Shown one piece after another: positions 239-28,076 of a DNA stretch of 64,000 nt. The position numbers and the translations under genes are program-made. The stretch's first letter is position 1. Each line of letters starts with the position of its first letter. Source of the stretch: Candidatus Tayloriibacteriota bacterium (GTDB taxonomy: Bacteria; Patescibacteriota; Minisyncoccia; Phycocordibacterales; UBA6065); contig JACRJQ010000005.1 in the NCBI GenBank assembly GCA_016215405.1, forward strand, positions 75,560-139,559, in the 5' to 3' direction. The notes under the pieces are model-generated. The model worked only from the letters and a program-made list of their open reading frames with translations. It was not told where the DNA came from and ran no database searches.

Positions 239-1423
239 ATGAGGCTTCCTTTATTCAAAAAGAGGCGGATATACGCCGATTGGGCGGCCACGACGCCCCT
301 GCATCCGAAGGTGTCTAGGGAGATGAGGTGCGCGCAGAAGGCGTGGGCGAATCCGTCGGCGATACACGCGGAGGGCGTAGAGGCGAAGAAGGCGCTCGAG
401 GATACGCGCGCGAAATGCGCGCGCCTCCTCGGCGTCCGGCCCGAAGAAGTCTGTTTTACGAGCGGCGGCACGGAGGCGAACGCGACGATCATTCAGGGGG
501 TGTTGCGCACGAAGATCGAGAATGGCGGGAAAGACATCCACGTCGTGACGACCACGATCGAGCACTCGTCGATCCTCGAGACCTTGAGGCTCTTCGAGTC
601 TCGCGGCGTTAAAGTCTCTTACGTCGCGCCTGACAAGGATGGGATCGTCTCTGCTCAGGAGGTAGTCAAGGCGATACGGCCCGAGACGGCGCTCGTCACG
701 GCGATGTTCGCGAACAACGAGATCGGGACTATCCAGCCTATCTCGAAGATAGGCGCTGCCATCCGCAAGATGCGGGCCGAGACGATGTCGGATTATCCGG
801 TCTTCCATACCGACGCCTCTCAGGCGCCTCTGTGGCTCTCGGTCGAGATCGAAGGGCTGCGCGCCGACGCCATGACCCTCGACGCCCATAAGATGCAGGG
901 TCCGAAAGGGGTGGGCGCCCTTGTCGTACGCGCTCGCGTCGCATGGGAGCCTCTTATGGTCGGAGGAGGGCAAGAGAGGGGCAAGAGGCCCACGACGGAA
1001 TCGGTCGAGCTCGCCGCCGGATTCGCCGAGGCGCTCTCGGTCGCCCAGGAGGAGAGGGGGCCGCGCGCGAAGCGCGCGGCCGGTATCCGGGACTACTCGT
1101 TCGATAGGATCTTGAGGGGGATTCCTGATGCGGTCATAAACGGCTCTCTCGATAAGAGGCTTCCGAATAACATCAACGTCTCGATACCTGATCTGTCAGA
1201 TCCCGAGCTCGCCGTGCTTTTCCTCGACCGGGAAGGCGTCGCCTGCTCGACCAAGAGCTCGTGTCTTAAGGGCGAGGAGGATTCCTACGTCGTAAAGGCC
1301 CTCGGCGGCGAGGGTTGGAGGGCCAAGAATACGCTTCGGTTGACGCTGTCACCCGATGCATCTCGCCGTGACGTAGATGTTATTGTGGAAGCGCTTAAAA
1401 AACTTCCGAAACAGCCGAAATAG
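239..1423 (+). CDS. Cysteine desulfurase (class V aminotransferase, IscS/NifS family)
   Basis: 394 aa. N-terminal ADWAATTP, TSGGTEANA and the PLP-lysine context DAHKMQGPKG are typical of NifS/IscS. Confidence 0.85.
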   Translation: MRLPLFKKRRIYADWAATTPLHPKVSREMRCAQKAWANPSAIHAEGVEAKKALEDTRAKCARLLGVRPEEVCFTSGGTEANATIIQGVLRTKIENGGKDIHVVTTTIEHSSILETLRLFESRGVKVSYVAPDKDGIVSAQEVVKAIRPETALVTAMFANNEIGTIQPISKIGAAIRKMRAETMSDYPVFHTDASQAPLWLSVEIEGLRADAMTLDAHKMQGPKGVGALVVRARVAWEPLMVGGGQERGKRPTTESVELAAGFAEALSVAQEERGPRAKRAAGIRDYSFDRILRGIPDAVINGSLDKRLPNNINVSIPDLSDPELAVLFLDREGVACSTKSSCLKGEEDSYVVKALGGEGWRAKNTLRLTLSPDASRRDVDVIVEALKKLPKQPK

Positions 1424-1438
1424 GATACTATATAGGGC

Positions 1439-2176
1439 ATGGAGCATCTCACGAAACAACAGATCGTACTTCTATGCCTTCTCGTTTCGTTCGTCTCGTC
1501 CATCGCGACGGGCATAGTCACGGTATCGCTTCTCGACCAGGCGCCTCCGGCCGTCACCCAGACCATAAACCGCGTGGTCGAGCGCACTATCGAGCGCGCA
1601 GGCGCGTCGGCGACGACGACCAAAGAGACCATCGTCGTCAAGGACGACCAGGCGACGGTCGACGCTATCGCGAAGGCTTCCAAGGCGATCGCGAGGATCT
1701 ATAACGAGGGCCGATTCATAGGCATCGGAGTCATCGTCTCCGGGTCGGGCAGGATCATCGCCCATACCGGCGATCTTTTCGGCGGCGCCATGGAAGCCCG
1801 CCTTGAAGGCGGCAACGTCGTCTCTGCCGAGCAGGTGTCGAGGGATCCGGTCACGGGCATATCCGTGTTCCAGGCGGAGCAGAGCTCCGACCCGAGGAGC
1901 GCTCGGGTATATTCCGCGGCTTCTCTCGCCGAGGCCTCTTCGCTGAGGCTCGGACAGGCGGTCATCGCCATCGGCGGGATAGACACGCCATCGGTCGCGA
2001 CAGGCATCGTATCATCGCTTGAGGGGACAAGGATACGCACGAGCGTTCGCGACCCTAGCTTTGACTCTCAGGCGGTACTTGTTAATCTCTTAGGCGAGGT
2101 CGTCGGGATGAAAGACCAGATCGACACGTCGACCTTCTCGGCTTCGAATCAAATAAATAAATATGCCACCCCTTAA
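1439..2176 (+). CDS. Membrane-anchored HtrA-fold (S1C-like) domain protein, probably non-catalytic
   Basis: N-terminal TM helix. Segments VIAIGGIDTPSVATGIVSSLEG and NLLGEVVGM parallel HtrA VIAIGNP..TSGIVSAL and GELIGIN, but no GNSGG serine motif. Confidence 0.4.
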   Translation: MEHLTKQQIVLLCLLVSFVSSIATGIVTVSLLDQAPPAVTQTINRVVERTIERAGASATTTKETIVVKDDQATVDAIAKASKAIARIYNEGRFIGIGVIVSGSGRIIAHTGDLFGGAMEARLEGGNVVSAEQVSRDPVTGISVFQAEQSSDPRSARVYSAASLAEASSLRLGQAVIAIGGIDTPSVATGIVSSLEGTRIRTSVRDPSFDSQAVLVNLLGEVVGMKDQIDTSTFSASNQINKYATP

Positions 2177-4868
2177 CCATTTCACGACCAAAGCGAAAGA
2201 AGCGATCAGGCGCGCCCACGAGCTCGCTATCGAGCGCGGGCAAAACCACGTGAATCCGCTGCATCTCCTCTCTGCCCTTATCCTGCAGGAGGAGAGCATG
2301 GTCACGGCCATACTCGAAAAGCTCGACGTCGACCTCATACTCCTTTCGGACTCGCTCGCGGAGTCTCTCGAGGGAGGCGGTCCGGCAGCGACCCTGTCGC
2401 AGTCCTACCAGCTCTATCTCACGCCCGAGCTCGCCTCTGCTATGGAGAACTCATCCAAAGTCGCGGCGGCCCTTAAGGACGAGTTCATATCGACGGAGCA
2501 CCTCTTTGTCGCTCTCCTCGAGGTGCCCTCTCCCGTGATCGAGATCATGGGCAGGTTCCGCGTGAACAAGCAGAACGTATTGAGAGTGCTCGAAGAGCTG
2601 CGCTCGGCGAAATCCACGGAAGCGGTCGCTTCAAAGAAGCCTCGCGCTCTCCTTAAGTACACGAAGAGCCTCACGAAGATGGCGACAGAGAACAAGCTCG
2701 ACCCCGTGATCGGCCGCGACAGCGAGATAAACCGCATCATTCAGATCCTTTCTCGCAGGACGAAGAACAACCCGATCCTCATAGGAGAGGCCGGCGTAGG
2801 AAAGACCGCTATAGTAGAAGGCCTCGCAATCCGCATGGCCCAAGGCGACGTGCCCGAGTCCCTTAAAGACAAGGAGCTCGTATCGCTCGATCTCGGCCTC
2901 CTCGTCGCCGGCACCAAATACCGCGGAGAGTTCGAAGAGCGCCTCAAGAACATCATGAAGGAGATCGAGAGGAGCGAAGGGAAGGTCATCGTATTCATAG
3001 ACGAGATCCATACGATCGTCGGCGCCGGAGCCGCCGAAGGCTCTATCGACGCGTCGAATATGCTCAAGCCCGCTTTGGCGCGCGGCGAGATGCGCGCGAT
3101 CGGGGCGACGACCTTGAAGGAGTATCAGAAGCACGTGGAGAAAGACCCTGCGCTCACGAGGCGCTTCCAGCCCGTATATGTCGCCGAGCCGTCCGTCGAG
3201 GATGCCATCGCCATCCTTCGAGGGCTTAAGGAGAAGTACGAGCTCTATCACGGCGTGCGCATCACCGACGACGCCATCGTCGCGGCCGTCAACCTCTCCG
3301 CCCGCTATATCTCCGACAGGTTCTTGCCCGACAAGACGGTCGACCTCATCGACGAGGCTGCGTCTGCGCTCAAGATAGCGCTCGAGTCCAAACCGCCTCT
3401 CCTCGAGGAGACGCATCGAAAGATCATGCGCCTCGAGATAGAGAGGGAGGCCCTGAGAAAGGAGATCGAACTCGCCAAAGACGAGAAGGAGGAGGCGAAG
3501 GCGCCGAAGTCGCGCATAAAGGCGATAGAGAAAGAGATCGCCGACCTGCGCGAGGAGACTCAAGAGCTCGAGCTCAAATGGAAAGGGGAGAAGGAGCTCC
3601 TCACGTCGATAAAGTCGATAAAGAAGGATCTCGAGAAACTGCGCCTCGAAGCCGAGGCGGCAGAGCTCAAGGCGGACCTCGGAAAGGCCGCTGAAATCCG
3701 CTACGGCAAGATACCTGCCCTCGAACGAGACCTCGACGCGAAGATGAAGAAGTTCAAGAAGCTCCAGTCCTCGCGCCGCATCCTCAAGGAGGAGATCACC
3801 GAGCAGGACATCGCCGACGTCGTCTCTAAGTGGACCGGCATCCCGGTGTCGCGGATGATGGAGGAAGAGGCGCAGAAGCTCATGAGGATGGAAGAAGAGC
3901 TCGGCAAGCGCGTGGTGGGGCAGGAAGAGGCGGTCAGAAAGATCGCCGACACCATCCGTCGCGCCCGCGCCGGCATCGCCGACCCGCAAAGGCCTATCGG
4001 ATCGTTCCTTTTCCTCGGGCCTACGGGCGTAGGAAAGACCGAGCTCACCAAAGCTCTTGCGGAGTTCATGTTCAACGACGACAAGGCTCTCGTCCGCGTC
4101 GACATGTCCGAATTCATGGAGAAGCATTCGACTTCGAAGCTCATCGGCGCGCCTCCGGGCTACGTCGGATACGACGAGGGAGGCTCTCTCACGGAGATGG
4201 TGCGCCATCGCCCGTATTCGGTGATACTCTTCGACGAGATAGAGAAGGCGCATCCGGAGGTGTTCAACATCCTCTTGCAGGTCCTAGATAACGGTCGCCT
4301 CACGGATACCAAGGGCCGCGTCGTGAACTTCAAGAACACGGTGATCATCCTTACGTCGAATATCGGCGCGCAGCATATCGATAAGATGGAGAAGCTCGGA
4401 TTCGCCTCCGACAGGGCCGACAAGGCGAAATACGAAGACGTGAAGGGCAAGGTCATGGAGAGCCTCAAGGACTATTTCAGGCCGGAATTCCTCAATCGCC
4501 TCGATTCCATAATCCTCTTCGACGTCCTCTCGCAGGATTCCATAAAGAACATCGTGAAGATCCAGGTCGACCAGGTCATAAAGAGGCTCGCCGAGAAAGA
4601 GATCAGGCTCGACGTCGCGCCTGCGGTCTGCGAATACCTCGCTAAAGAAGGCTACAACCCTCAGTACGGAGCGAGGCCTCTCAAGCGCCTTATCCAGGAG
4701 AAGATACTCACTCCAGTCGCCGGATTCATGATCTCGCAGGGAGTGGGCAAGGGAGGGTCTATCATGGTGGGAGTGAAGGCTGGAGAATTCACATTCGACG
4801 TCAAGAAAGGCAAGAGGCCGATCCCTCTTAAGGGCCTTGGGGAAGAAGAGGTGGAGAAGGTGGGGTAG
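2163..4868 (+). CDS. clpB: ATP-dependent chaperone ClpB (two AAA+ modules plus coiled-coil middle domain)
   Basis: 901 aa with two Walker A sites ([20 protein letters not shown]), a long coiled-coil insert and a Clp N-domain. The motifs read directly. Confidence 0.95.
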
Positions 4869-4997
4869 AGGACTAAGGGGTAAGATTCTCCGCCTACGGC
4901 GGCAGTACAGGTTTCCTATTTTCTCAGACGAATACGTCTTCGAAAATATAGGAGAACCCTTTCGAATCCTGTCCGGACGCTCCGCTGGAGCGTTCTC

Positions 4998-5044
4998 TAC
5001 GCACAAATAGAAAACACCCATTGGGTGTTTTCTATTTGTGCGTA
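4998..5044. terminator. Perfect 22-bp stem with a 3-nt loop between convergent clpB and tRNA-Tyr; it overlaps the tRNA 3' end
   Basis: tacgcacaaatagaaaacaccc att gggtgttttctatttgtgcgta. It is a perfect palindrome and its last 6 nt belong to the tRNA acceptor 3' strand. Confidence 0.5.
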
Positions 5045-5122
5045 GGACAGGATTCGAACCTGTGAAGCCCAATGGGCGACAGATTTACAGTCTGTTGTAT
5101 TTGACCACTCTACCACCTACGC
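5039..5122 (-). tRNA. tRNA-Tyr (anticodon GTA), type II with long variable arm; no encoded CCA
   Basis: The reverse complement folds as acceptor GCGTAGG/CCTACGC, anticodon stem-loop ACAGA-CTGTAAA-TCTGT and T-arm CAGGTTCGAATCCTG. Confidence 0.9.
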
Positions 5123-5191: not shown

Positions 5192-6376
5192 ATGAAAAAT
5201 CAGCCTCTCCGCACGTGGGTCGAGATAGACTATGCCGCTATCGAGGGCAACGCGCGCGCCCTCCGGAAGATCCTGGGGGAAGAGGCTTCTATGATGGCCG
5301 TCGTAAAATCGAACGCGTACGGACACGGCATGGCGGATGCCGCGCGCGCGGCCATCAGAGGCGGCGCCGAGAGGCTCGCTGTGGACGAATTGTCCGAGGC
5401 GCTCGCGCTGCGCGCCACGGGCATAAAGGCGCCCATCCTCGTCCTCGGCTACACGCTCCCGGAGCTCTACAAGGCCGCGGCTCAGAAGAACATATCGATC
5501 ACCATCTCCTCCCTCGAATCGCTTCAGGGCCTCGCCAAGATGAAGCTTCCGAAGAGGCTCAACATCCATCTGAAGTTCGACACCGGCCTCTATCGGCAGG
5601 GGATACAGGAGACATATATAGAGCAATCTCTGCGCATACTGTCGGCGAAGGGGTTCCCTGCGGCGGTCGAGGGGGCGTACACGCACTTCGCGGTCATGGA
5701 AGACCCTTTGCGAGAGGAGTATTCGAAGATGCAGGCGAGGGCGTTCCGGAACGCGGTCGCGAAGCTCAAGGCGAAAGGCTTCTCGCCTCTGACCCACGCG
5801 TCGGCATCGTCAGGGATACTCTACTCGAAAGACTACCACTTCGATATGTCGCGCGCGGGGATCGCGCTCTATGGCCTCTGGCCTTCGCCAGAGATCAGGA
5901 AATGGACCGGCCACGCTGACCTCGTTCCGGCTCTTTCGTGGAAATCGATCGTCACCGAAGTGAAGCTCGCGCCCAAGGGCTCGAAGGTGGGCTACGACCT
6001 TACTCATGAGACCCTTCGGAATTCGCGCCTCGCCATAGTCCCTGTCGGGTACTGGCACGGCCTCCCGAGGAGCCTCTCGAACAAGGGTCAGGTCCTCGTC
6101 TGCGGCAAGCGCGCCAACATCGTCGGAAGGATATCGATGGATATGGCCATCATCGACGTCACCGATATACCGAGCGTTCGAGAGGGGGACGAGGTCGTCA
6201 TCATCGGCAGGCAAGGGAAGGAGACCATGCCGGCCGAAGAGGTCGCTGCGAGCGCGGGCACGATAAACTACGAGATCGTGACGCGCATAAATCCGCTTAT
6301 CCCTCGCATCCCCGTCGGGAGCAAGATCTATTCCCAGAAATCGAAGAGGCCTGCTGTGAGGCAGTATCATATATGA
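5192..6376 (+). CDS. alr: Alanine racemase
   Basis: PLP-lysine motif VVKSNAYGHG near the N-terminus. The 394 aa length fits alr. Confidence 0.9.
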   Translation: MKNQPLRTWVEIDYAAIEGNARALRKILGEEASMMAVVKSNAYGHGMADAARAAIRGGAERLAVDELSEALALRATGIKAPILVLGYTLPELYKAAAQKNISITISSLESLQGLAKMKLPKRLNIHLKFDTGLYRQGIQETYIEQSLRILSAKGFPAAVEGAYTHFAVMEDPLREEYSKMQARAFRNAVAKLKAKGFSPLTHASASSGILYSKDYHFDMSRAGIALYGLWPSPEIRKWTGHADLVPALSWKSIVTEVKLAPKGSKVGYDLTHETLRNSRLAIVPVGYWHGLPRSLSNKGQVLVCGKRANIVGRISMDMAIIDVTDIPSVREGDEVVIIGRQGKETMPAEEVAASAGTINYEIVTRINPLIPRIPVGSKIYSQKSKRPAVRQYHI

Positions 6377-7124: not shown

Positions 7125-7742
7125 TCAGTGATTGAATTGCTCTTGTTTGAATATGTGGGCGTCCTTTGGATCGCGGCCAGGAGAGAGGAGAACGATCTCG
7201 GAATTTCCGAAATGGAAGTTCTTGAGCGCGTCCTTCCAATCGATGCCATAGAACGCGGCGTAGATCATCTTGCCGATGTCGCCGTGACAGACGAGCAGGA
7301 CGTTGCCTCCTGCGCGCTCCTTCTGTACGTCCGAGATGAGCTTCTTCGCGCGCTCGATGAGATCGGGAAACGTCTCGGACCCCGGACATTCGGTCACGTA
7401 GGTGACCGTATTCGTCTTTATGATGTGAGGGGAATAGAGCTTTTCGATATCGGATATCTTCCTTCCAGTCATATCCCCGAAATTCCTCTCGATGAGACCG
7501 TCTCGCTTCTCAGGCTTATCGAGGCCTAGATGGTCGGCGATTATCTCTGCCGTCCTGTATGCCCTCGAGAGCGGGGAAGAATATATCTTGTCGAATCTGA
7601 TCCCGGTCTTCTCGAGGTGGAGGGCGAGGTTCTTCGCCTGTTCGATGCCGATCTTTGTCAAAGGGAGGTCGCGGTGCCCGTTGAGGATGCCGTTTACGTT
7701 GTCTTCGTTCTGGCCGTGGCGGACGAGGTAGATGGAAAGCAT
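7125..7742 (-). CDS. Histidine phosphatase family protein (phosphoglycerate-mutase-like)
   Basis: The N-terminus LVRHGQNEDN carries the RHG catalytic motif. Length is 205 aa. Confidence 0.8.
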   Translation of the reverse strand: MLSIYLVRHGQNEDNVNGILNGHRDLPLTKIGIEQAKNLALHLEKTGIRFDKIYSSPLSRAYRTAEIIADHLGLDKPEKRDGLIERNFGDMTGRKISDIEKLYSPHIIKTNTVTYVTECPGSETFPDLIERAKKLISDVQKERAGGNVLLVCHGDIGKMIYAAFYGIDWKDALKNFHFGNSEIVLLSPGRDPKDAHIFKQEQFNH

Positions 7743-7768
7743 GGGGAGTGATTAGGAGATGAGGGAAT

Positions 7769-7788
7769 CGGTCCTTACAGGACCAGTA
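7769..7788. repeat. 20-nt hairpin-forming motif cggtccttacaggaccagta (copy 1 of 2)
   Basis: Exact 20/20 match to 14340..14359. Internal hairpin ggtcc-ttaca-ggacc. It lies between a minus-strand tRNA and the start of the next minus-strand gene. Confidence 0.7.
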
Positions 7789-7835
7789 CCCATGTTTGGA
7801 TATATTTTCGCCTATGGCTCAAATCTGTCTCAAAC

Positions 7836-7855
7836 AGGCTTCGATTCCCTCATCG
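7836..7855 (+). repeat. Sense-orientation partial copy (19/20 nt) of the tRNA-Trp 3' half, inverted relative to the real tRNA
   Basis: gcttcgattccctcatcgcc versus the tRNA 3' half GGTTCGATTCCCTCATCGCC. Together with 7911..7930 it forms a long palindrome with nested hairpins in between. Confidence 0.75.
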
Positions 7856-7910
7856 CCAAAGCAATGATGTTTCGCTCGGACGGCTACCCAGCCGTCCTTG
7901 CGAATCATTG

Positions 7911-7981
7911 CGGGCGATGAGGGAATCGAACCCCCACCAAGGCGTTTGGAGTGCCTCGTTCTACCATTAAACTAATCGCCC
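7911..7981 (-). tRNA. tRNA-Trp (anticodon CCA); no encoded CCA
   Basis: Reverse complement GGGCGAT..D-arm..AGGCA-CTCCAAA-CGCCT..GGGGGTTCGATTCCCTCATCGCCCG. The anticodon loop CUCCAAA is classic Trp; there is one A-C mismatch in the anticodon stem. Confidence 0.85.
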
Positions 7982-8068
7982 GTATTCTGTTTTCAAGCCC
8001 TGATTTTATAGCACAAATCCGAGCTAATTGGAATTTCAATCCTTTCTGGGAGTACTATACTTACACCT

Positions 8069-9238
8069 ATGGAAACAGAGCCGCTCGCCCACAAGATAAG
8101 GCCAAAGACCCTCGACGAATTCGTGGGGCAGCGAGAATTGGTGGGGGAAGGGAAGCCCTTGCGCAAAGCGATCGAGGAGCGCCGCCTCTTTTCGTTCATC
8201 CTGTGGGGACCGCCCGGAGTGGGCAAGACGACCTTGGCGAAGGTCTACGCCGGCGCGCTCGACGCGCGCCTCTACGAGCTCTCTGCCGTGTCCGCAGGTA
8301 AGGACGACATAAAGAGGATCATGGACGAATCGTCGCTTCTCGACGCCCGGCCGAAGGTCCTTTTCCTCGACGAGATACATCGCTTCAACAAGGCGCAGCA
8401 GGACTTCCTCCTACCCTTCGTCGAGTCGGGGCGCCTCACTCTTATCGGCGCGACCACCGAGAATCCGTCGTTCGAGGTCAACTCGGCGCTCCTCTCCCGT
8501 TGTCGCGTATTCGTGCTCAAGAGCCTCTCCGAGGACGAGATACGCCTCATCCTTAAAAGGACGAAGATCAAGATCCCAAAAGACGCGCTCGACTGGCTCG
8601 CGTCCCTCTCGAACGGCGACGCTCGGATCGCCCTCTCCGCCCTTGAGAACGCTCGCGCGCTCTACGGCAAGGTCACTTTGGATAACCTCAAGCAGGCGTT
8701 CGAACAGGTATTCATACGCTTCGACAAGAAAGGTGACGAGCATTACGATACGATATCCGCGTTCATTAAATCGATGCGGTCTGGGGATGCCGATGCGGCG
8801 CTCTACTATCTCGCGCGCATGATCGAAGGCGGGGAAGACCCTAAGTTCGTCGCGAGGAGGATGGTCATCTTCGCTTCCGAGGATGTAGGTCTCGCACAGC
8901 CCACCGCGCTCGTCGTTGCGAACGAGGTCTTCTCGGCCGTCGAGAACATCGGCTTGCCCGAGGCTGCCATAAACCTCGCGCACGGCGCCGCGTACCTCGC
9001 GCTCGCCGCAAAGGATCGCTCTTCGTATGACGCCTACTTCGAGGCGCTCGCCGACGTGAAGCGATTCGGCAACCTGCCTATACCTATGAAGATAAGGAAT
9101 GCGCCGACGAAGCTTATGAAAGAGCTCGGCTACCATAAGGGGTACGAAAAGTACGACGCTGGCTCGTATCTGCCCGAAAAGCTGAAAGGAAAGGCCTATC
9201 TAAAGCGGAAAAATAGAGAGAAAGAGGATAGATCCTAG
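8069..9238 (+). CDS. rarA: Replication-associated recombination protein A (AAA+ ATPase RarA/MgsA)
   Basis: Walker A LWGPPGVGKTTLA, the RarA-type N-terminus IRPKTLDEFVGQ, and a C-terminal MgsA helical domain. Confidence 0.9.
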   Translation: METEPLAHKIRPKTLDEFVGQRELVGEGKPLRKAIEERRLFSFILWGPPGVGKTTLAKVYAGALDARLYELSAVSAGKDDIKRIMDESSLLDARPKVLFLDEIHRFNKAQQDFLLPFVESGRLTLIGATTENPSFEVNSALLSRCRVFVLKSLSEDEIRLILKRTKIKIPKDALDWLASLSNGDARIALSALENARALYGKVTLDNLKQAFEQVFIRFDKKGDEHYDTISAFIKSMRSGDADAALYYLARMIEGGEDPKFVARRMVIFASEDVGLAQPTALVVANEVFSAVENIGLPEAAINLAHGAAYLALAAKDRSSYDAYFEALADVKRFGNLPIPMKIRNAPTKLMKELGYHKGYEKYDAGSYLPEKLKGKAYLKRKNREKEDRS

Positions 9239-13402: not shown

Positions 13403-14293
13403 TTAAGAGAGGAATCTCTTCGCGAGAGAGAGGGCTTTTCCGCTCTGATCCGGACGAAGCCAGTGTATATCCTTGTTCCTCTGGAACCACGTCATTTGGC
13501 GCTTGGAAAAATCGACGATGCGGTTCTCAAGCTCGAGGAGCATGCTCTCCTTTGAGATCTTCCCCTGGAGATAGAGCGCGAGAAAGCGATATTCGAGCCC
13601 GAGTTCGTGGAATCGTTTCCAGGAGAGGCCCCTTTTCCGCAATGACTTCGCTTCTTCGACCATACCCTGCTTCATGCGCCTCTGGAGGCGGGCGCGTATC
13701 TTTTCTCTGAGGGCCTTTCGATCTGTCGTAAGCCCGATCCAGAGAGTCTCGTACGCCTTTGTGCGCTTCATCTTTGGAACTTTACCGAGCACACGTGCGA
13801 TCTCTATGGCACGGATGATGCGTACCTTGTTGAGGGGATCGAGCTCTTTCGCCCGGCGAGGGTCGAGCTTCTCGATCTCCTTCATGAGCGTTTTCGTGCT
13901 TTTTTTAGCGAGCCGTGCGCGCAGCTTCGCGTCTGGAGGCACGGCAGGGAAGGATTCATCGTAGGCGAGAGCGTCGATATAGAATCCAGTGCCGCCGCAT
14001 ATGATCGGTACATCGCCGCGCGAGAGTATGTCCTCGATAGCTTTGCGTCCGTCATTCTTGAATCTCTCGACGTTATAGGTCTTTTTCGGGTCGCAGACAT
14101 CGATAAGATGGTGGGGCACGCCATTCATCTCGCGACGGGTTATCTTGCCCGACCCGACGTCGAGACCTCTGTATACCTGCCTCGAATCCGCCGAAACGAC
14201 CTCGCCCTTGAACCGTCGAGCCAAAAGCACGGCGAGGTCGCTCTTTCCTGTGGCGGTTGGGCCGCATACGATGATAACTTTCGGATGCCTCAT
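13403..14293 (-). CDS. miaA: tRNA dimethylallyltransferase
   Basis: P-loop CGPTATGKS in MRHPKVIIVCGPTATGKSDLA. The start was trimmed to the internal Met at 14293 because the longer ORF (to 14503) overlaps tRNA-Leu. Confidence 0.9.
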   Translation of the reverse strand: MRHPKVIIVCGPTATGKSDLAVLLARRFKGEVVSADSRQVYRGLDVGSGKITRREMNGVPHHLIDVCDPKKTYNVERFKNDGRKAIEDILSRGDVPIICGGTGFYIDALAYDESFPAVPPDAKLRARLAKKSTKTLMKEIEKLDPRRAKELDPLNKVRIIRAIEIARVLGKVPKMKRTKAYETLWIGLTTDRKALREKIRARLQRRMKQGMVEEAKSLRKRGLSWKRFHELGLEYRFLALYLQGKISKESMLLELENRIVDFSKRQMTWFQRNKDIHWLRPDQSGKALSLAKRFLS

Positions 14294-14339
14294 AGTGTAG
14301 ACTCTACCAGAAATAATCGGAAAGGGAATTTGGGAGGCT

Positions 14340-14359
14340 CGGTCCTTACAGGACCAGTA
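14340..14359. repeat. 20-nt hairpin-forming motif cggtccttacaggaccagta (copy 2 of 2)
   Basis: Identical to 7769..7788 and in the same context, between minus-strand tRNA-Leu and the miaA start. Confidence 0.7.
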
Positions 14360-14425
14360 TCCTGATTGGATGTGTAAGAACGCATGTTCAATCAGGCCTC
14401 GAGTCCCACGCACAAAGCTCCGCTT

Positions 14426-14509
14426 TGGTGCCGGAGGTGGGACTCGAACCCACACACCTTTCGATACGCGATTTTGAGTCGCGCGCGTCTGCCATTCCGC
14501 CACTCCGGC
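14426..14509 (-). tRNA. tRNA-Leu (anticodon CAA), type II, CCA encoded
   Basis: Reverse complement GCCGGAG..GTGGCGGAATGGCAGACGC..CGCGA-CTCAAAA-TCGCG..variable arm..GTGGGTTCGAGTCCCACCTCCGGCACCA. Confidence 0.9.
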
Positions 14510-18935: not shown

Positions 18936-19793
18936 TCAGATCCTCCGGAATTCTCCTAGCCTCTCCTCTATGAGGCCTTTTATCTCGAGGAGAGATATGA
19001 GAGAGCTTATCTTCGACGTCTCCATGTCGAGCCTGTCGAGGAGGTCGTCGCGAGAGAGAGGCGACGACAGGACTTCGATCACCTTTATCTCGTCGGCCGA
19101 GAGGTCCGAATAGTCCGTCTCGCTCCTCTCCGCGCCCGGCTTGAACCCGAGGGCTTCGGCGAGGTCGGCCGCGCACGTAAGGGGGGTCGCCCCGAGGCGT
19201 ATGAGCATGTGAGGCCCCGCGCTCTGGGAGGAGAATATGGAGCCAGGGACGGTAAAGACGTTCCTGTTGAATTCGGTCGCGTATTTCGACGTGATAAGGG
19301 TCCCCGACTTTATATCCGCTTCGACCACGAGCGTCGCGTGGGATATCCCCGCCATGATCCGGTTGCGCGCGGGAAAGGTCCAGGGCGCCGCCTTGACGCC
19401 CTCCTCGAACGGGGAAACGAGGCATCCTCCCGCCCTCACGATCTCTTTCGCGAGCTCGCGGTTGGCGGCCGGATATATAGACTCCTCGGACAGGCCCGAT
19501 CCCGGCACCGCGACCGTCTTGAGGCCGTATCTGAGGGCGGTGCGGTGGGCGATGGAATCGATCCCGAAAGCGAGCCCCGATACGATGACGACGGGTAGGC
19601 CTGAAAGCCCAGAAAGGAGCGATTCTACGGCTTCTTTGCCGTAGTCGCTGTGCCGCCTCGATCCCACCACCGTAAGGAGCATGTTCTCGGCCGAGGGGAA
19701 GCTTCCTATCATATAGAGCTTTTTCGGCGGGCTCGGCATCTCTCGCAGAAGCGGCGGGAAATCCTCTGGGGCGAGCGTCCTTATGGAATTCAT
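18936..19793 (-). CDS. dprA: DNA processing protein DprA (Smf)
   Basis: The Rossmann-like DprA core reads GSRRHSDYG, GLAFGIDSIAHRTAL and TLVVEADIKSGTLITSKYATEFNRNVFTVPG. Confidence 0.9.
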   Translation of the reverse strand: MNSIRTLAPEDFPPLLREMPSPPKKLYMIGSFPSAENMLLTVVGSRRHSDYGKEAVESLLSGLSGLPVVIVSGLAFGIDSIAHRTALRYGLKTVAVPGSGLSEESIYPAANRELAKEIVRAGGCLVSPFEEGVKAAPWTFPARNRIMAGISHATLVVEADIKSGTLITSKYATEFNRNVFTVPGSIFSSQSAGPHMLIRLGATPLTCAADLAEALGFKPGAERSETDYSDLSADEIKVIEVLSSPLSRDDLLDRLDMETSKISSLISLLEIKGLIEERLGEFRRI

Positions 19794-23715: not shown

Positions 23716-23883
23716 AGACCTCTTCTTGCAACGCGGAGTTCGCGGGTGTAGATTTAGGGAGACCTCGGGGCGGCGGCAGTAGGACCTCTCGGGCAAGAAG
23801 CCTTTCGGCATCTAGGGCCTGCTTGGAACCGAGCCTGCCGCTCCAAGTTCTTCGTTTTTTTGGGCGGTATTCATGTATGTGGG

Positions 23884-23917
23884 CGCGGGCGGGACCTCCT
23901 TGGTCCTGCCCGCCTTT
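23884..23917 (+). promoter_or_regulatory. GC hairpin plus T-run (paralog 2 of 2), 16 nt upstream of the pilin A1 start codon
   Basis: gcgggcgggacc tccttg gtcctgcccgc c tttt. The stem is identical to 23681..23708 with a different loop. Confidence 0.45.
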
Positions 23918-23932
23918 TGTTATACTGGGCGC

Positions 23933-24826
23933 ATGAAGCCTTTCCGCGGACGCTTCGGCGCGCAAAGCGGGTTCACCCTCATAGAGCTCCTCGTCGTGAT
24001 ATCGATAATATCGCTCCTTTCGTCTGTCGTCCTCTCGCAGCTTAACGCGGCGAGGGAGAAGGGGAGGCTCGGCAGCGCGAAGCAGTTCGCGGCCCAAGTC
24101 GACCGCGTGGCGGGAGATAGGGCTGTCGGTATCTGGGAGCTCGACGAGTGCTCCGGCGCGGCCGCGGCGGATAGGTCTGGAAACGGGAACAACGCTTCGC
24201 TTTCAGGCAGCCCTTCATGGCTTTCAGATACTCCCGACTCGACAGGCTGCTCTCTGAGCCTTAACGGCTCGACCCAAGGCGCTCTCGTGCCTCATGCGCC
24301 ATCCCTAGATCTCACAGGCGACATGACCTTTTCCATATGGTTCTATGCCAACGCGTCGAGCTGGCCCGCGAGCTGGCAGTCCCTCATGTCGAAAGGAAAC
24401 GCGACTCCGCGCAACTATTTTATGAACGTGATGAGCGGGGAGAGCGTCGTCGCGAACGATTGCTCCGACCAGACCGGGGGCTTTCAGTTCGGCTACCACG
24501 ACGGGACGACTTTCCGGCTCGTCGATATAAACGCGAGCTCTGTGCCGACCCAGCGGTGGGTGAACGCTGTCGGGGTGATATCCGCGAATGGGGCTAATCG
24601 CGACGTGAAGCTCTATATAGACGGACAGTTGAGGGCTTCGGCTTTGTGCTCTAACGCCCCTACGTCGAATACGGTGCCTCTCTCGATCGGCTCTATCCAG
24701 AATTCGATCGAGTTCTTCAACGGGAGAATAGATAAGGTCCGCCTATTCGAAAAATCGCTTACAGCGTCCGAAGTAGGCAGGATGTATGCCGCAGAGGCTC
24801 CGAAATATGAATTCGCATATGAATAG
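23933..24826 (+). CDS. Type IV pilin-like protein A1 (prepilin leader/methylation motif plus LamG-type Laminin_G_3-like domain)
   Basis: The class III leader ends ...G|FTLIELLVVISIISLLSSVVLSQLNAAREKGR. The mature part carries the WELDECSG....DRSGNGNNASL signature. Start moved to the internal Met; the track ORF begins at 23873. Confidence 0.8.
   Translation: MKPFRGRFGAQSGFTLIELLVVISIISLLSSVVLSQLNAAREKGRLGSAKQFAAQVDRVAGDRAVGIWELDECSGAAAADRSGNGNNASLSGSPSWLSDTPDSTGCSLSLNGSTQGALVPHAPSLDLTGDMTFSIWFYANASSWPASWQSLMSKGNATPRNYFMNVMSGESVVANDCSDQTGGFQFGYHDGTTFRLVDINASSVPTQRWVNAVGVISANGANRDVKLYIDGQLRASALCSNAPTSNTVPLSIGSIQNSIEFFNGRIDKVRLFEKSLTASEVGRMYAAEAPKYEFAYE
23971..24062 (+). repeat. 92-nt perfect direct repeat shared by pilin A1 and A2; the second copy is at 24834..24925
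   Basis: ttcaccctcatagagctcctcgtcgtgatatcgataatatcgctcctttcgtctgtcgtcctctcgcagcttaacgcggcgagggagaaggg is identical in both genes. Confidence 0.9.
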
Positions 24827-25637
24827 AAGAGCCTTCACCCTCATAGAGCTCCTCGTCGTGATATCGATAATATCGCTCCTTTCGTCTGTCGTCCTCTCGC
24901 AGCTTAACGCGGCGAGGGAGAAGGGAAGATTGGGCGCCGCCCGCCATTTTGCGGCCCAGGTCGAGCATACCGCGGGAGACCTCGTCGTGGGCATGTGGAG
25001 CTTCGACGAGTGCGCGGGGCTTTCCACCGCCGATAGGTCCGGGTTCGGGAACAACGGAGTCCTTCAGAATATGGCGGGCACGTCCGAGTGGTCGTCCGAT
25101 ACGCCGTCAGGTACGGGATGCTCGCTCCTCCTTGACGGCACGAACGACTACGTCTCCGTCCCGGATTCTGCGAGCCTCGATCTCAGCGGCGTGGCGACCT
25201 TGTCTATCTGGGTAAAATCGAGCGGCACGAACGCATATTCCGGATTCATGAATAAGACGAGCGCCCTTACCGGATATCAATTCGGCATCGGCGCTTCGAA
25301 TAGCATCCGCGGGGATCTCTATAACGGCACGACCTATATAAGCCCGATGCACACGACGAACGTCCTCGATGGAAAATGGCATCATATCGCGGTGGCGTAT
25401 GACGGCGTCGCCGCAAAGGTCTATGTCGACGGGATCGCGGGCGGCGCGGTCGCGGGATCAGGCTTCGTCACGGCTAACAACGCCTCTTTCGTCATAGGCA
25501 ACGACGTGTGCTGCGGAGGGAGATTCTTTAACGGCAGGATAGACGAGGCGAGGGTATTCGCCAAGGCTCTGACGGCGAAAGAGGTAGAAAGGATCTACGC
25601 GTCTGAGAAAAAGGGGTCCCAGGTCGCCGGCATCTGA
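24807..25637 (+). CDS. Type IV pilin-like protein A2 (prepilin N-terminus plus LamG-type domain)
   Basis: AFTLIELLVVISIISLLSSVVLSQLNAAREKGR and WSFDECAGLSTADRSGFGNNGVL. It overlaps the A1 stop. Confidence 0.8.
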   Translation: MNSHMNRRAFTLIELLVVISIISLLSSVVLSQLNAAREKGRLGAARHFAAQVEHTAGDLVVGMWSFDECAGLSTADRSGFGNNGVLQNMAGTSEWSSDTPSGTGCSLLLDGTNDYVSVPDSASLDLSGVATLSIWVKSSGTNAYSGFMNKTSALTGYQFGIGASNSIRGDLYNGTTYISPMHTTNVLDGKWHHIAVAYDGVAAKVYVDGIAGGAVAGSGFVTANNASFVIGNDVCCGGRFFNGRIDEARVFAKALTAKEVERIYASEKKGSQVAGI

Positions 25638-26738: not shown

Positions 26739-27338
26739 TTAGCTATTTTTGGGCGTGAATTCAAAGACGAGCCCTTCGGATCTTAGATAAGAGAAATTGC
26801 TATCACAGACTTCGAATCCGACGAACGAGCAGTCGCCGATCTCTTTGAGCTCGCCCCATTTGAGATAGTCGCGAAAGAGGACCCTAAGAGGCCCTCCATG
26901 GGTCACGACCGCTACGCTCTCGTATCCCGATCCTAGGATGCGGCCGAACCCCGCGATGACGCGATCGCTGAAATCCTCGTAGGATTCAGCTCCTTCGATC
27001 GTGTTGAGCCTGTCTTTGAGCGCCTCGACGAGCGTCTGGTGCGATCTTTTCGCATCCTCCTTTTTCATCCCTGTAAGGATGCCGTATTGGTTGCGCTCGC
27101 GGATGTCGCTTCGCGGTTCGGTTGGCGCGCCCGTCTGCGCCGCTATCGCCGCGCCGGTCTCTCTCGCTCTCGAAAGGGAGCTCGTGAATATCTTCTCTAT
27201 GCCCTCGCTCTTGAGCTTGAGCGCGACCTGCTCAGACTGCTCGCGTCCCTTCTCGGAAAGGCTGTCGTCATAATCGCCTCCGTAGCGGTTCTCGATATCT
27301 CCTGTCGTCTCTCCGTGTCTTAGAAAAATATCTTCATA
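26739..27338 (-). pseudogene. Histidine phosphatase family gene with an apparent -1 frameshift in an A5/T5 homopolymer (pseudogene or sequencing error)
   Basis: The minus strand reads ATG AAG ATA TTT TTC TAA (MKIFF*). The +2 frame continues as FLRHGETTGD...SSLSRARETG and runs into the track ORF 26739..27068 (MKKEDAKRS...VVTHGGPLRV). One extra T would give an intact MKIFFLRHGET N-terminus. Confidence 0.55.
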
Positions 27339-27437
27339 GCCGATGATTTATAGTGGTGAGATGGGGTGTAGCGCGCAGAAGGCGCATCATCAGTATACGG
27401 ATTATAGGAATGTGTTGCGAGCAGCACGACCTTGAGT

Positions 27438-27746: not shown

Positions 27747-27903
27747 ATATCTTATTGTACGCTTTTTGAGCAGGTTGGGGTGCGGGTAAGTCTGGACTTG
27801 GACCGCGAATACGCTTATCGCCCTCGACTCGAATCTCGCCGTCGCTCGATTCGGTCTGGGCACCGCCTCGCTCCCGCCGGAAGCCGTCGGGTCCTGCTCC
27901 GGC

Positions 27904-27949
27904 GTTCGATTCCAAACGCGATGCATTTCCATGCATCGCTGTCCGGCAA
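27904..27949 (+). repeat. Sense-orientation partial copy of the tRNA-Gln 3' half, split by a 25-nt hairpin
   Basis: gttcgattccaa (12 nt), then the hairpin gcgatgcat-ttcc-atgcatcgc, then gtccggcaa. It matches the tRNA 3' half GGTTCGATTCCAAGTCCGGCAA. The arm gtccggcaact/agttgccggac pairs with the real tRNA acceptor end. Confidence 0.65.
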
Positions 27950-27970
27950 CTACTCGCCGCAGCTTCTAGT

Positions 27971-28039
27971 TGCCGGACTTGGAATCGAACCAAGATTCTA
28001 GGCTCCAAAGGCCCATGTCCTACCATTAGACGATCCGGC
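27971..28039 (-). tRNA. tRNA-Gln (anticodon TTG); no encoded CCA
   Basis: Reverse complement GCCGGAT..TCTAATGGTAGGA..TGGGC-CTTTGGA-GCCTA..CTTGGTTCGATTCCAAGTCCGGCA. The 7-nt loop geometry puts TTG at positions 34-36. Pro (TGG) would need a shifted loop and is less likely. Confidence 0.75.
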
Positions 28040-28076
28040 AATATGTGGCCTTAAAAGTACACCAAAAGAGCTTTAA

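Follow-up and report, generated by a model that had tools for sequence, protein, structure and literature searches.

The question raised by this locus is why a tRNA-Trp gene should have an inverted copy of its own 3' half lying just beyond its 3' end. An earlier note on the 64,000-nucleotide stretch of DNA analysed here (the window) had placed a 19/20 inverted copy at 7836..7855; the copy exists, but those coordinates are 1-2 nt off, and the match is better stated as 20/21. In a repeat search of the window, the arms of the inverted repeat were located at 7837-7857 and 7913-7933; they are 21 nt long, 20/21 (95%) complementary and 55 nt apart, and the tRNA-Trp 3' half is indeed one arm of a ~100-nt imperfect palindrome. 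The 55-nt spacer is palindromic as had been described, with an outer pair GCAATGAT/ATCATTGC and a second palindrome (7867-7885/7890-7908) containing GGACGGCT-ACCC-AGCCGTCC. In terms of the tRNA, 18 of the 20 nucleotides at positions 54-73 of tRNA-Trp are reproduced, inverted, at 7840-7859. The inverted copy covers the T-loop (TTCGATT), the 3' strand of the T-stem (CCCTC) and the acceptor-strand bases ATCGCC; as T-stem and acceptor-strand bases are included, it is more than a generic T-loop. The possibility that the similarity is confined to the generic T-loop sequence GTTCGATTCC fails on realignment, and the claim that tRNA-specific acceptor bases take part in the match holds both here and in a test of cognate pairings over 78 loci (see below).

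The earlier reading is therefore supported yet incomplete, as the palindrome is only the tRNA-proximal half of a 158-nt module (7753-7910). A third, direct copy of the tRNA 3' half, which the note did not report, lies at the distal end of this module and pairs with the inverted copy. Modules also follow tRNA-Tyr, tRNA-Leu and tRNA-Gln, such that 4/4 tRNAs of the window have one (Table 1), and the family is spread through Patescibacteria. As a whole, the module is small and non-coding and lies directly 3' of tRNA and tmRNA genes, with the inverted copy as one of its arms. Folding of the Trp region gives z-scores of -9 to -10.8, whether as RNA or as DNA and on either strand; together with the same arrangement at the three other tRNAs of the window and cognate specificity across 78 loci, this excludes a chance origin.

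Table 1. Modules behind the four tRNA genes of the window, and their parts
Feature	Position	Strand	Basis or remark
tRNA-Trp(CCA)	7911..7981 (lower bound 7910/7911)	minus	ARAGORN; Rfam RF00005, 64.6 bits
Trp spacer with nested hairpins, between tRNA 3' end and copy 2	7858..7910	minus	repeats and folds
Trp spacer, outer stem	7861-7868/7904-7911
Trp spacer, inner stem (GGACGGCT/AGCCGTCC)	7878-7885/7890-7897
Trp copy 2, inverted tRNA-Trp positions 54-71	7837..7857	plus	20/21; 18/20 over 54-73
Trp P3, long imperfect hairpin	7790..7838	minus	folds, RNAalifold, strand test
Trp P2 hairpin and conserved flank	7770..7789	minus	exact 19-mer 7770-7788; stem covariation in variants
Trp copy 3, direct degenerate copy of tRNA positions 56-73	7753..7770	minus	15/16 at 7755-7770
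Type A module behind tRNA-Leu(CAA) (14429-14509)	14330..14428	minus
Leu weak copy 3	14330-14341
Leu P2 and AGTA	14341-14359		exact 19-mer
Leu P3	14360-14397
Leu copy 2, T part	14398-14409		11/12
Leu mini-hairpin AAAGC-TCC-GCTTT	14414-14426
Variant module behind tRNA-Tyr(GTA) (5039-5122)	4877..5038	minus
Tyr degenerate copy 3	~4877-4889
Tyr P2 variant CCGCC-TAC-GGCGG and CAGTAC	4890-4908
Tyr P3	4909-4959
Tyr copy 2, T part	4961-4972		12/12
Tyr P4 hairpin	4975-4995
Tyr copy 2, acceptor part	4996-5003		7/8
Tyr terminator-like palindrome	5005-5037
Type-B-like module behind tRNA-Gln(TTG) (27970-28040)	27792..27969	minus
Gln partial copy 3	27792-27802		10/11, by eye
Gln G+C-rich body	27821-27903		contains GTCTGGGCACCGCCTCGC
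Gln copy 2, T part	27905-27916		11/12
Gln P4 hairpin	27918-27939
Gln copy 2, acceptor part	27942-27949		8/8

In the Trp module, positions 54-73 of the tRNA gene itself (window 7911-7930; CCA is not encoded) constitute copy 1 of the repeated 3' half. Copy 2 is the same as the tRNA over 7840-7857 and a partial match over 7837-7839; it stops at tRNA position 71 and is followed by AAAG. P2 and its flank read GGTCC-TTACA-GGACC-AGTAC on the plus strand (GUACU-GGUCC-UGUAA-GGACC in tRNA sense), and the exact P2 19-mer occurs twice in the window, where the number expected by chance is 0. P2 adjoins copy 3 at the point equivalent to tRNA 55/56. Copy 3, which agrees with tRNA-Trp at 10/10 positions over 56-65 and at 15/18 over 56-73, pairs with copy 2 to form a stem, P1, that closes a three-way junction with P2 and P3; it ends 12 nt ahead of the ATG of the next gene (7742). 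The slot occupied by the spacer holds at other loci a bidirectional terminator-like palindrome or a GCGNAGC mini-hairpin (at tRNA-Leu, where miaA starts at 14293, it reads GCGGAGC in tRNA sense). No terminator-like site was called in 7650-8100, so the Trp spacer is without a called canonical terminator, and it contains no T-run. Bodies resembling that of the Gln module were found at loci L014, L003 and L029.

Using the P2 19-mer GGTCCTTACAGGACCAGTA as a query, we found at least 117 loci in public genomes, at least 116 of them in Patescibacteria metagenome-assembled genomes and the one exception a Niabella match that has no other module parts; as loci were gathered by the exact 19-mer, the conservation of P2 among them is partly circular, which the variant modules relieve only in part. 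The hosts are Patescibacteria of the Paceibacteria/Parcubacteria type, and module size is ~100-230 bp. Of 120 instances of the 19-mer, 86 have a convergent tRNA 3' end no more than 300 nt away, and ~16 others are at locus edges. Among the 78 instances analysed in detail there are 31 different anticodons, and tmRNA genes with a module were found at L062, L068 and L003. The general order, in tRNA sense, is intact tRNA (with positions 54-73 as copy 1), spacer hairpin, copy 2, P3, GUACUG, P2 with its UGUAA loop, and copy 3, a direct repeat of positions 56-74. Copy 2 is the reverse complement of positions 73-54 and is mostly split between 65 and 66 by a 22-25-nt hairpin, P4. In Rfam only the four tRNAs of the window pass the gathering threshold, and, scanned at permissive thresholds, the Trp, Tyr and Gln modules gave weak miRNA-like or plastid-like chance matches alone. 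We found no description of the module architecture in the literature searched, where the nearest cases are group I introns at position 35/36 of tRNAs in Patescibacteria (PMC13011429) and the Dada transposons treated below (PMC8869645).

The arms of a module are specific to the tRNA that it adjoins. The 9-nt T-loop/T-stem piece of the inverted copy is perfect in 43 of 78 cognate pairings, versus 13 of 5496 non-cognate ones, and the 8-nt piece comprising acceptor and discriminator bases is perfect in 17/78 versus 8/5496. For the direct copy, 21 of 78 cognate instances are perfect over 13 nt, and no non-cognate pairing (0/5496) reaches 12/13. An inverted copy of positions 54-65 matching at 10/12 or better is found downstream of 100 of 170 tRNAs; the same test applied upstream gives 10/12 in 8/170 and never 11/12.

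The stems of P2 and P3 covary. For P2 the pairs GGUCC/GGACC, GAAGC/GCUUC, GACCG/CGGUC, GAUCC/GGAUC and CCGCC/GGCGG are found around a fixed loop and 5' flank; P3 differs in sequence among loci, and its G·U pairs are commoner on the tRNA-sense strand (58 versus 35 on the other). P3 also folds better in tRNA sense at 61 of 70 loci, versus 7 for the opposite strand, and the motif GCGNAGC occurs 22 times on the tRNA-sense strand and twice on the other (P = 3.6e-5, binomial test), compared with ~3 in shuffled sequences and a 7-fold lower density in flanking DNA. Mini-hairpins of the GCGNAGC type are much more stable as DNA than as RNA and mark single-stranded DNA priming sites (PMC13037366). As DNA, the tRNA-sense strand of the Trp locus folds at -58.7 kcal/mol (z = -10.8). 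The strand bias could, however, arise from C-to-T mutation bias or from RNA structure instead of folding of single-stranded DNA.

Signs of both mobility and decay were found. The earlier note had proposed checking whether the trailer is conserved as a unit with its tRNA; instead, the scaffold is conserved across different tRNAs, and one relative, L119, has both the same tRNA-Trp 3' half and the tRNA-Leu/miaA synteny without a module at either (for tRNA-Trp this is a comparison without synteny, as a tRNA-Trp lies nearby in only L118 and L119 of 80 RarA loci). In L119 the tRNA-Leu(CAA) gene is separated from miaA by 25 nt, and in the window, where the gene order is the same, the gap is 133 nt and contains the module; the orthologous site is empty in L119. 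Among the 80 tRNAs in the collected loci that lack the exact 19-mer, 27 have a variant module and ~50 have none, and the inverted copy was found at 0/10 tRNAs of the RarA-relative loci. Serial modules follow a single tRNA at L043, L029, L064 and L003, and truncated and solo copies occur at L001, L036 and L110. At L022, a 3.6-kb island that carries HTH and KilA-N genes has a complete module on one side and, on the other, a distal P3-P2 that comes with a perfect copy of tRNA-Glu positions 56-74. The tRNA beside a module is always intact, and stem mismatches are not in excess in these tRNAs; the two extra copies, on the other hand, decay independently, with 89 sites at which copy 3 is altered and copy 2 still equals the tRNA, 95 sites showing the reverse, and 8 at which the two copies share an identical change. 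P3 bodies at different tRNAs are closer within one genome than between genomes (P = 0.0135, Mann-Whitney test), and three of 14 same-genome pairs reach an identity of at least 0.85, where the 95th percentile of the background is 0.74. This suggests that modules at different tRNAs share scaffold descent; however, the likeness could be due to gene conversion instead of movement. Modules of 100-230 bp have no room for an ORF, and we found no recombinase or transposase in or beside modules or in the L022 island, whose ORFs have no integrase or recombinase match in Pfam or PHROGs. No HUH gene was detected among the 20 window ORFs scanned, and neither an excised form nor polymorphism inside one population was observed.

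The reading that we favour, and to which we give about an even chance, is that of a non-autonomous insertion module whose target is the T-loop and 3' end of tRNA genes and which probably works via folded single-stranded DNA. The module would be, or would have been until recently, a non-autonomous mobile element that enters at the T-loop, at position 55/56 or, equivalently, just past the tRNA 3' end; the tRNA would be left intact because its 3' half is duplicated on both flanks of the insert. The inverted copy would allow the tRNA-sense strand to fold back onto a tRNA-derived segment and so restore, beside P2 and P3, a duplex similar to the target gene's double-stranded 3' half. The outcome may be a folded single-strand site for recombination or priming, by analogy with the attP of CTX phage or the attC of integrons, and a module resident in the chromosome would mostly be a decaying passenger, supplying a terminator at most.

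The analogy with CTX-phage attP (XerCD, IMEX) and integron attC is one of anatomy only. In these sites, inverted target-like copies anneal within one strand, stem structure is kept over sequence, extra hairpins protrude and the strands are asymmetric. The module resembles them in its stem conservation, protruding hairpins and strand bias, and it likewise has, on one strand, inverted arms that rebuild a target-like duplex, with copy 2 pairing either with copy 1 (20/21) or with copy 3; its target, however, is a tRNA gene and not dif or attI, and no Xer or IntI partner was identified. Tyrosine-integrase islands and prophages in tRNA and tmRNA genes share with the module a target that runs from the T-loop to the 3' end, a gene that stays intact, direct repeats on both sides of the insert (15/16 at tRNA-Trp), tandem arrays and, in one case, a 3.6-kb island bounded by module repeats; the module differs in that it has no integrase gene, is 100-230 bp long, adds a copy of the target in inverted orientation, contains hairpins that covary and, with a single scaffold, serves at least 31 tRNA identities. 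Like REP/REPIN-RAYT sequences and the PATEs of IS200/IS605, modules are short, non-coding and hairpin-forming and lack classical terminal inverted repeats; strand-specific hairpins, within-genome likeness and a presumed trans-acting enzyme are further common points. In REP/REPIN and PATE elements, however, the sequence is fixed and the target measures 4-5 nt, whereas the module has ~40 nt of tRNA-derived sequence and a fixed position relative to the tRNA. In place of the terminal inverted repeats of their own and the 2-10 bp target duplications that define MITEs, modules have inverted arms that are target-derived and different at every tRNA, and a direct repeat of ~19 nt (positions 56-74). Dada DNA transposons of fish also insert site-specifically into tRNA and snRNA genes, but they are eukaryotic and protein-coding, make 6-7-bp target duplications, disrupt a single copy where a gene has many and use the anticodon stem or positions 8-13, rather than the T-loop, as their insertion site (PMC8869645).

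The interleaving of conserved segments (P4, P3, P2) with tRNA-specific ones is not explained by simple cut-and-paste with a short target duplication, and at least 31 specificities are difficult to explain if the arms are borne by the element. A bolder version of the favoured reading, unlikely in our estimation, is that of a new kind of mobile element in which the conserved scaffold P4-P3-P2, moving as folded single-stranded DNA, recognises GTTC and the T-loop, and the target-matching arms are written from the target or are programmable. The universal GTTC/T-loop of any tRNA or tmRNA gene would be recognised, and the inverted and the direct copy would arise on insertion, when synthesis folds back at the terminator hairpin and switches template at microhomologies in the T-loop. 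If this is true, one scaffold could colonise every tRNA gene with target-written arms, inactivating none and needing no protein of its own.

Template switching may be how the arms are written, but as a complete account, namely a passive by-product of replication at a terminator hairpin (quasi-palindrome extension, fold-back synthesis) with neither an element nor a function, we regard it as very improbable. The tRNA 3' end and copy 2 do form one long palindrome centred on the spacer hairpin, the terminator palindrome at empty sites sometimes reaches the last tRNA bases (L048), and the direct repeat continues into the terminator at L027, L072 and L098; this origin nevertheless leaves unexplained the covarying P2, P3 and P4, the fixed junction at tRNA 54 and 56, the occurrence at more than 100 loci in many genera and the restriction to one phylum. 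The spacer is often a palindrome of A-run, hairpin and T-run starting at C74, as at module-free tRNAs (terminator-like palindromes at other loci were recognised by eye), but rho-independent terminators do not account for copy 2, P3, P2 or copy 3, and the Trp spacer does not qualify as an intrinsic terminator. Modules might instead be the worn ends of integrase-borne islands or prophages that target the T-loop region of tRNA and tmRNA genes, with P2, P3 and P4 as arm-type protein-binding sites beside att, the interior deleted and the inverted copy a peculiarity of attP. In favour of this, every module has direct repeats of the tRNA 3' end on both sides, tmRNA genes also serve as targets, repeats of this kind bound the L022 island, which has P3-P2 at its distal end, and integration hot spots at tRNA and tmRNA genes typically show arrays like those of the modules. 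In none of the cases inspected did we find an integrase, however, and the small uniform size and complete architecture do not look like random deletion end points; in addition, stem covariation speaks for hairpins and not for duplex protein-binding sites, and one scaffold for at least 31 tRNA specificities is unlike the co-specificity of integrase and att. We hold this origin to be quite unlikely.

We give the same low weight to a cis-acting RNA in the tRNA trailer, co-transcribed with the tRNA, in which copy 2 would pair with either the tRNA 3' half or copy 3 in two exclusive folds, the latter helix mimicking the cognate acceptor/T-arm minihelix; it could act as a processing signal of the RNase P or RNase Z type, as a switch for folding or quality control, or as a terminator or insulator ahead of the gene that follows. 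In its favour, the structural signals prefer the tRNA-sense strand, folds with RNA parameters are very stable (z = -9), P4 occupies the very point at which the D and anticodon arms of a tRNA branch from the acceptor/T helix, and the Trp and Leu modules of the window lie between the tRNA and a co-directional gene. Across loci, however, only 62 of 100 modules are followed by a co-directional gene, a count that also led us to reject a leader or promoter for the downstream gene. Furthermore, most modules are separated from the tRNA by a terminator-like palindrome directly next to it, of a kind also present at empty tRNAs, modules occur at only some of the tRNAs and are absent from relatives, changes in copy 3 are not compensated in copy 2, tandem arrays and solo and truncated copies are known, and the enriched GCGNAGC is a DNA-specific stabiliser. 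Far less credible is an independent sRNA gene opposite and convergent with the tRNA, sharing its bidirectional terminator and serving as a guide or decoy for the cognate tRNA, with a 5' arm antisense to the tRNA 3' half and a 3' arm that mimics it. The layout (a structured body, then hairpin and T-run) resembles that of an sRNA gene, the plus strand folds well and the 5' arm is complementary to tRNA positions 56-74, but the other strand is the better candidate by both G·U versus A·C counts and minimum free energies, we found no promoter-like site upstream in the window, the 5' arm runs up to or into the neighbouring coding sequence, the arm decays, and the match tracks the gene trailer and not the mature CCA end.

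Several further readings were rejected. Small ribozymes (hammerhead, twister, pistol and hatchet) were compared by eye, and the three-way junction and GAG...CGAA apex misfit the hammerhead core; a known RNA family was set aside with the Rfam scans, in which tRNAs alone were recovered at gathering and permissive thresholds. Retroelement primer-binding sites resemble the arms in having ~18-20 nt complementary to a specific tRNA 3' end, but the module has no complement of CCA and no reverse transcriptase, and its copies track the gene trailer: CCA is encoded in 7/32 of copies 3, much as in empty genes (11/57) and with 14/110 in filled genes, and reverse transcription of mature tRNA was rejected. 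The single promoter-like match in the Trp module lies inside P3 and is no more than is found in shuffled sequences. The ORF at 7759-7920 was rejected as coding, since P3 differs between loci and the ORF is not conserved. A T-loop intron with copy 3 as its 3' exon is unnecessary, given that the tRNA is always intact and copy 3 usually degenerate, and chimeric tRNAs with element-borne 3' halves are not indicated by the stems of filled tRNAs. A phage origin was rejected because the 19-mer has no match in a viral contig collection.

The 3' ends of tRNA and tmRNA genes are classic landing sites for mobile DNA, and to our knowledge their known users are large integrase-encoding islands and phages. 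On the favoured reading, the same site would be used by a protein-less ~150-bp element that leaves the 3' half of its target triplicated, with one copy inverted, and a single scaffold serves at least 31 tRNA identities and is abundant in the reduced genomes of Patescibacteria, in which each tRNA gene is typically single-copy. If the folded single-stranded DNA reading is true, hairpin-mimic recombination sites reach beyond CTX phage and integrons to tRNA genes, and modules offer a handle on DNA exchange in an uncultivated and probably naturally competent phylum. Modules also yield spurious ORFs (such as that at 7759-7920) and pseudo-tRNA fragments, which can mislead annotation, island finders and tRNA-based binning checks. 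As a separate observation, and only as a lead towards a mobilising enzyme, 3 of 117 loci have small GIY-YIG ORFs next to tRNAs or modules.

The earlier note had claimed that the 3' half of the tRNA-Trp gene is repeated in inverted orientation beyond the gene's 3' end, with nested hairpins between the two. A repeat search confirmed this: arms of 21 nt (7837-7857 and 7913-7933), complementary at 20 of 21 positions, enclose 55 nt; the site stands, and its exact positions had been off by 1-2 nt. The inverted arm (copy 2) covers TTCGATT of the T-loop, CCCTC of the T-stem 3' strand and, from the acceptor 3' strand, ATCGCC. Because 18 of the 20 bases at tRNA positions 54-73 (copy 1) are present in it, the similarity goes well beyond a generic T-loop, as had also been proposed. 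Inverted repeats found inside the spacer bear out its nested hairpins, and both strands of the region, whether folded as RNA or as DNA, are far more structured than their shuffled controls (z from -8 to -10.8). The repeat search also found what the earlier note lacked, a third copy (copy 3; GGAGATGAGGGAATCG, 7755-7770, 15/16 identity to 7913-7928), which is a direct repeat of tRNA positions 56-71. Copies 2 and 3 pair to form a 16-bp stem, P1; in predicted folds it is the closing stem of a three-way junction whose other two arms are the short hairpin P2 and the long hairpin P3. Read in tRNA sense, that is, on the strand of the adjoining tRNA gene, the order is tRNA, spacer hairpin, copy 2, P3, P2, copy 3, 12 nt, and the ATG of a histidine phosphatase, the first gene beyond this module.

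The tRNA-Tyr, tRNA-Leu and tRNA-Gln genes of the window, all on the minus strand, are followed by the same arrangement, their weak copy 3 coordinates having been placed by eye. The Trp and Leu modules have an exact 21-mer (TCGGTCCTTACAGGACCAGTA) in common, against a chance expectation of none; the Gln module has a body resembling type B, described below.

Coordinates of the tRNA-Trp locus, and match of copy 2 to the tRNA in the other modules of the window
Feature	Coordinates	Strand	Copy 2, T part	Copy 2, acceptor part	P4 hairpin between 65 and 66
tRNA-Trp(CCA)	7910/7911-7981	minus
P2, short hairpin of Trp module	7770-7784
P3, long hairpin of Trp module	7790-7838
tRNA-Tyr module			12/12	7/8	21 nt
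tRNA-Gln module			11/12	8/8	22 nt
tRNA-Leu module			11/12	absent	none

Histidine-phosphatase (His_Phos_1) genes lie downstream of both tRNA-Trp (7125-7742, minus) and tRNA-Gln (~26739-27340, minus). Their products are paralogues with 31% identity, and the pairing may be a coincidence or an old segmental relationship. A 53-aa ORF (7759-7920, plus) lies entirely within the Trp module, and its FAYGSNL stretch resembles gamma-glutamylcyclotransferase. Other modules lack a conserved counterpart, and the ORF is almost certainly spurious, of a kind that gene callers may report behind tRNAs.

We scanned the exact 19-mer of P2 (GGTCCTTACAGGACCAGTA) against one genome per species (596 Gb) and found matches in at least 117 stretches. 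Among the matches listed, all but one are in Patescibacteria MAGs (Paceibacteria/Parcubacteria, Kaiserbacteria, Nomurabacteria, Taylorbacteria and similar groups). The exception, on a contig of Niabella sp. (Bacteroidota; locus L108, 2848-2866), has no arms, P3 or any other part, and we take it as chance, consistent with the approximately four chance matches expected for a 19-mer in 596 Gb. Comparison loci were gathered by the exact 19-mer or via one protein, so that frequencies among them are biased; with this proviso, a tRNA 3' end is convergent to the motif within 300 nt in 86 of 120 instances among the matches listed, and some 16 more are truncated where the locus ends. Detailed analysis covered 78 instances, with 31 anticodons among them, and three tmRNA genes carry a module. 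No Rfam family matches any of the modules examined.

The module arms are cognate to the adjoining tRNA. A 13-nt piece of copy 3 (T-stem 3' strand, acceptor 3' strand and discriminator) is perfect in 21 of 78 loci, and none of 5496 non-cognate pairings reaches 12/13; for 9 nt of copy 2, perfect matches number 43 of 78 cognate versus 13 of 5496 non-cognate pairings. Copy 2 begins at T54 and is preceded by C or T, never by the conserved G53, while copy 3 begins at C56 immediately after P2, and the direct repeat extends to C74 before fading. P4, a hairpin of 22-25 nt, interrupts copy 2 between positions 65 and 66 in 28 of 32 well-preserved cases; the Trp module, like the minority, lacks it. Some modules have a different P2 stem, and in those with GAAGC/GCUUC stems copy 3 begins at T54. 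There are at least two further body types, B (GGGGUCG...CGUGACC) and C (CGAC-GGUA-GUCG).

Several results favour an insertion over a functional role of the module in tRNA expression. Not every tRNA is occupied: of 170 with sufficient flanking sequence, 100 are followed by an inverted copy of positions 54-65 (at least 10/12), and on the upstream side eight reach 10/12 and none 11/12. A variant module follows 27 of the 80 tRNAs without the exact 19-mer, and about 50 have no module; in 80 loci of RarA relatives of the window's organism, the inverted copy is absent from all 10 tRNAs. Locus L119 provides an orthologous empty site, in which tRNA-Leu(CAA) and miaA are separated by 25 nt versus 133 nt, module included, in the window. 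The tRNA-Trp of L119 has the same 3' half as that of the window, with 5 nt between its 3' end and a convergent stop codon. Truncated and solo copies occur, as do serial modules behind one tRNA (L043, L029, L064 and L003), each ending in a copy of 56-74, the inner copies being perfect; an island in L022, described below, is bracketed likewise. Changes relative to the tRNA affect copy 3 alone at 89 sites, copy 2 alone at 95 and both alike at eight; the two copies thus drift independently, and P1 is therefore not maintained by in-place compensation. Only 62 of 100 modules are followed by a co-directional gene, and most modules stand behind a terminator-like palindrome starting at C74, as is also found at empty tRNA genes. 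The tRNAs adjoining modules are fully intact.

Some loci are more complex. Behind tRNA-Pro in L064 (~2490-3000) lies a tandem array of near-identical units, each comprising tRNA-Pro 54-73, a terminator, the acceptor complement, P4, the T complement, P3 and a type-C P2; it includes a partial tRNA copy beginning in the variable region. In L022, copies of tRNA-Glu(CTC) positions 56-74 bracket a 3.6-kb island (736-4416) with an HTH repressor-like gene, a KilA-N regulator, four ORFs without matches and no integrase; its distal end bears P2-P3 and then an inverted P2-like sequence, and a Fic/DOC gene comes next. A type-A module (the type behind tRNA-Leu of the window) in L028 (~5880-6070), 110 nt downstream of miaA, has arms matching tRNA-Trp (GCGGGCGATGAGGATCG) and no detectable adjoining tRNA; the sequence beside it contains an odd T-arm-like GGTTCCAGCC. 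The tRNA-Ile of L188 (1092-1165) has a perfect 18/18 direct copy of 56-73 ~302 nt downstream (~1470) and no inverted copy, which may represent a second gene or some other type of insertion.

The hairpins P2 and P3 are genuine. Stems of P2 covary around an invariant loop (UGUAA) and flank (GUACUG, tRNA sense), and RNAalifold recovered P1, P3 and P2 from 37 modules, with double-sided changes at 21 of 25 pairs; covariation of P1 is implied by its tRNA-derived arms. P3 has the lower free energy in tRNA sense at 61 of 70 loci and on the other strand at seven, with 58 versus 35 G·U pairs, and a G·U pair of the type-B helix GGUCG/CGUGACC in tRNA sense becomes an A·C mismatch on the other strand. GCGNAGC, found directly after the tRNA or at the P3 apex, has 22 occurrences on the tRNA-sense strand of the 78 modules and two on the opposite strand (P = 3.6e-5); shuffles yield about three, and in 109 kb of flanking DNA its density is sevenfold lower. 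A 2026 review describes GCGNAGC and GCGNNAGC as forming DNA mini-hairpins of extraordinary stability, far above that of their RNA counterparts, and GCGNAGC as a mark of priming sites on the single-stranded DNA of phages and plasmids (PMC13037366). From the strand bias and DNA-specific stability of GCGNAGC we infer that the folded species is probably single-stranded DNA of the tRNA-sense strand. Strand bias would equally be expected of a cis-acting trailer RNA, serving as a minihelix mimic or folding switch, and we give that explanation some weight. The modules might also be eroded ends of integrase-borne islands, a passive by-product of replication or a convergent sRNA gene, but each of these clashes with the features tested.

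The most economical reading is that the module is a non-autonomous element entering at the T-loop (55/56). The tRNA gene would survive insertion, its 3' half being present on both sides. In the free single strand, element-borne positions 56-74 would anneal with copy 2, P4 and the spacer hairpin protruding, and this fold would rebuild a duplex image of the target beside P2 and P3. After insertion the old 3' half would remain behind P2 as copy 3 and decay, which fits its lower identity to the tRNA (8.3/10 and 5.2/8, versus 9.2/10 and 6.1/8 for copy 2). No mobilising enzyme was found among the ORFs of the L022 island or the 20 window ORFs scanned, and the interleaving of tRNA-specific and conserved segments across at least 31 specificities goes beyond this mechanism.

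Within one genome, the bodies of modules at different tRNAs are unusually similar (3 of 14 pairs at 0.85 identity or more; background 95th percentile 0.74; P = 0.0135), and their arms, P4 and spacers differ; either modules move between tRNAs and have their arms re-written, or gene conversion takes place among those already resident. Cognate cassettes might spread by transformation and homologous recombination, the homology being provided by copy 3 and by tRNA positions 1-55. Alternatively, synthesis might fold back at the terminator hairpin and switch templates at T-loop microhomology, or a putative single-strand recombinase or nuclease might act. The window encodes DprA (18936-19793, minus) and two pilin-like proteins with an N-terminal methylation motif and Laminin_G_3 (23873-25637, plus), which are parts of a DNA-uptake and ssDNA-processing apparatus. 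Small free-standing GIY-YIG nuclease ORFs (PF01541) lie by tRNAs or modules in only three of 117 loci among the matches listed (L090, 3477-3746; L078, 5077-5313; L046, 303-491), that of L090 being flanked by the 3' end of tRNA-Gly on one side and by the inverted acceptor copy on the other; a homing-endonuclease link is possible.

The module works like tRNA-targeting integrative elements, and its anatomy shares the duplex-image principle of the folded-strand att sites, CTX-phage attP and integron attC. It differs from integrase islands in having no integrase and from MITEs in having no terminal inverted repeats of its own and a 19-nt repeat, and it qualifies neither as a primer-binding site nor as a terminator. 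A full-text literature search found no published description of this architecture; among the nearest papers were those on Patescibacteria tRNAs that carry group I introns at position 35/36 (PMC13011429) and on eukaryotic Dada transposons (PMC8869645). Should the arms prove to be written from the target, the module would be categorically new.

By eye, within 8040-8071 and 14293-14330, the RarA and miaA start codons have -10-like TATACT and TAGAGT 7-8 nt upstream and no Shine-Dalgarno sequence before them, which suggests that both mRNAs may be leaderless.
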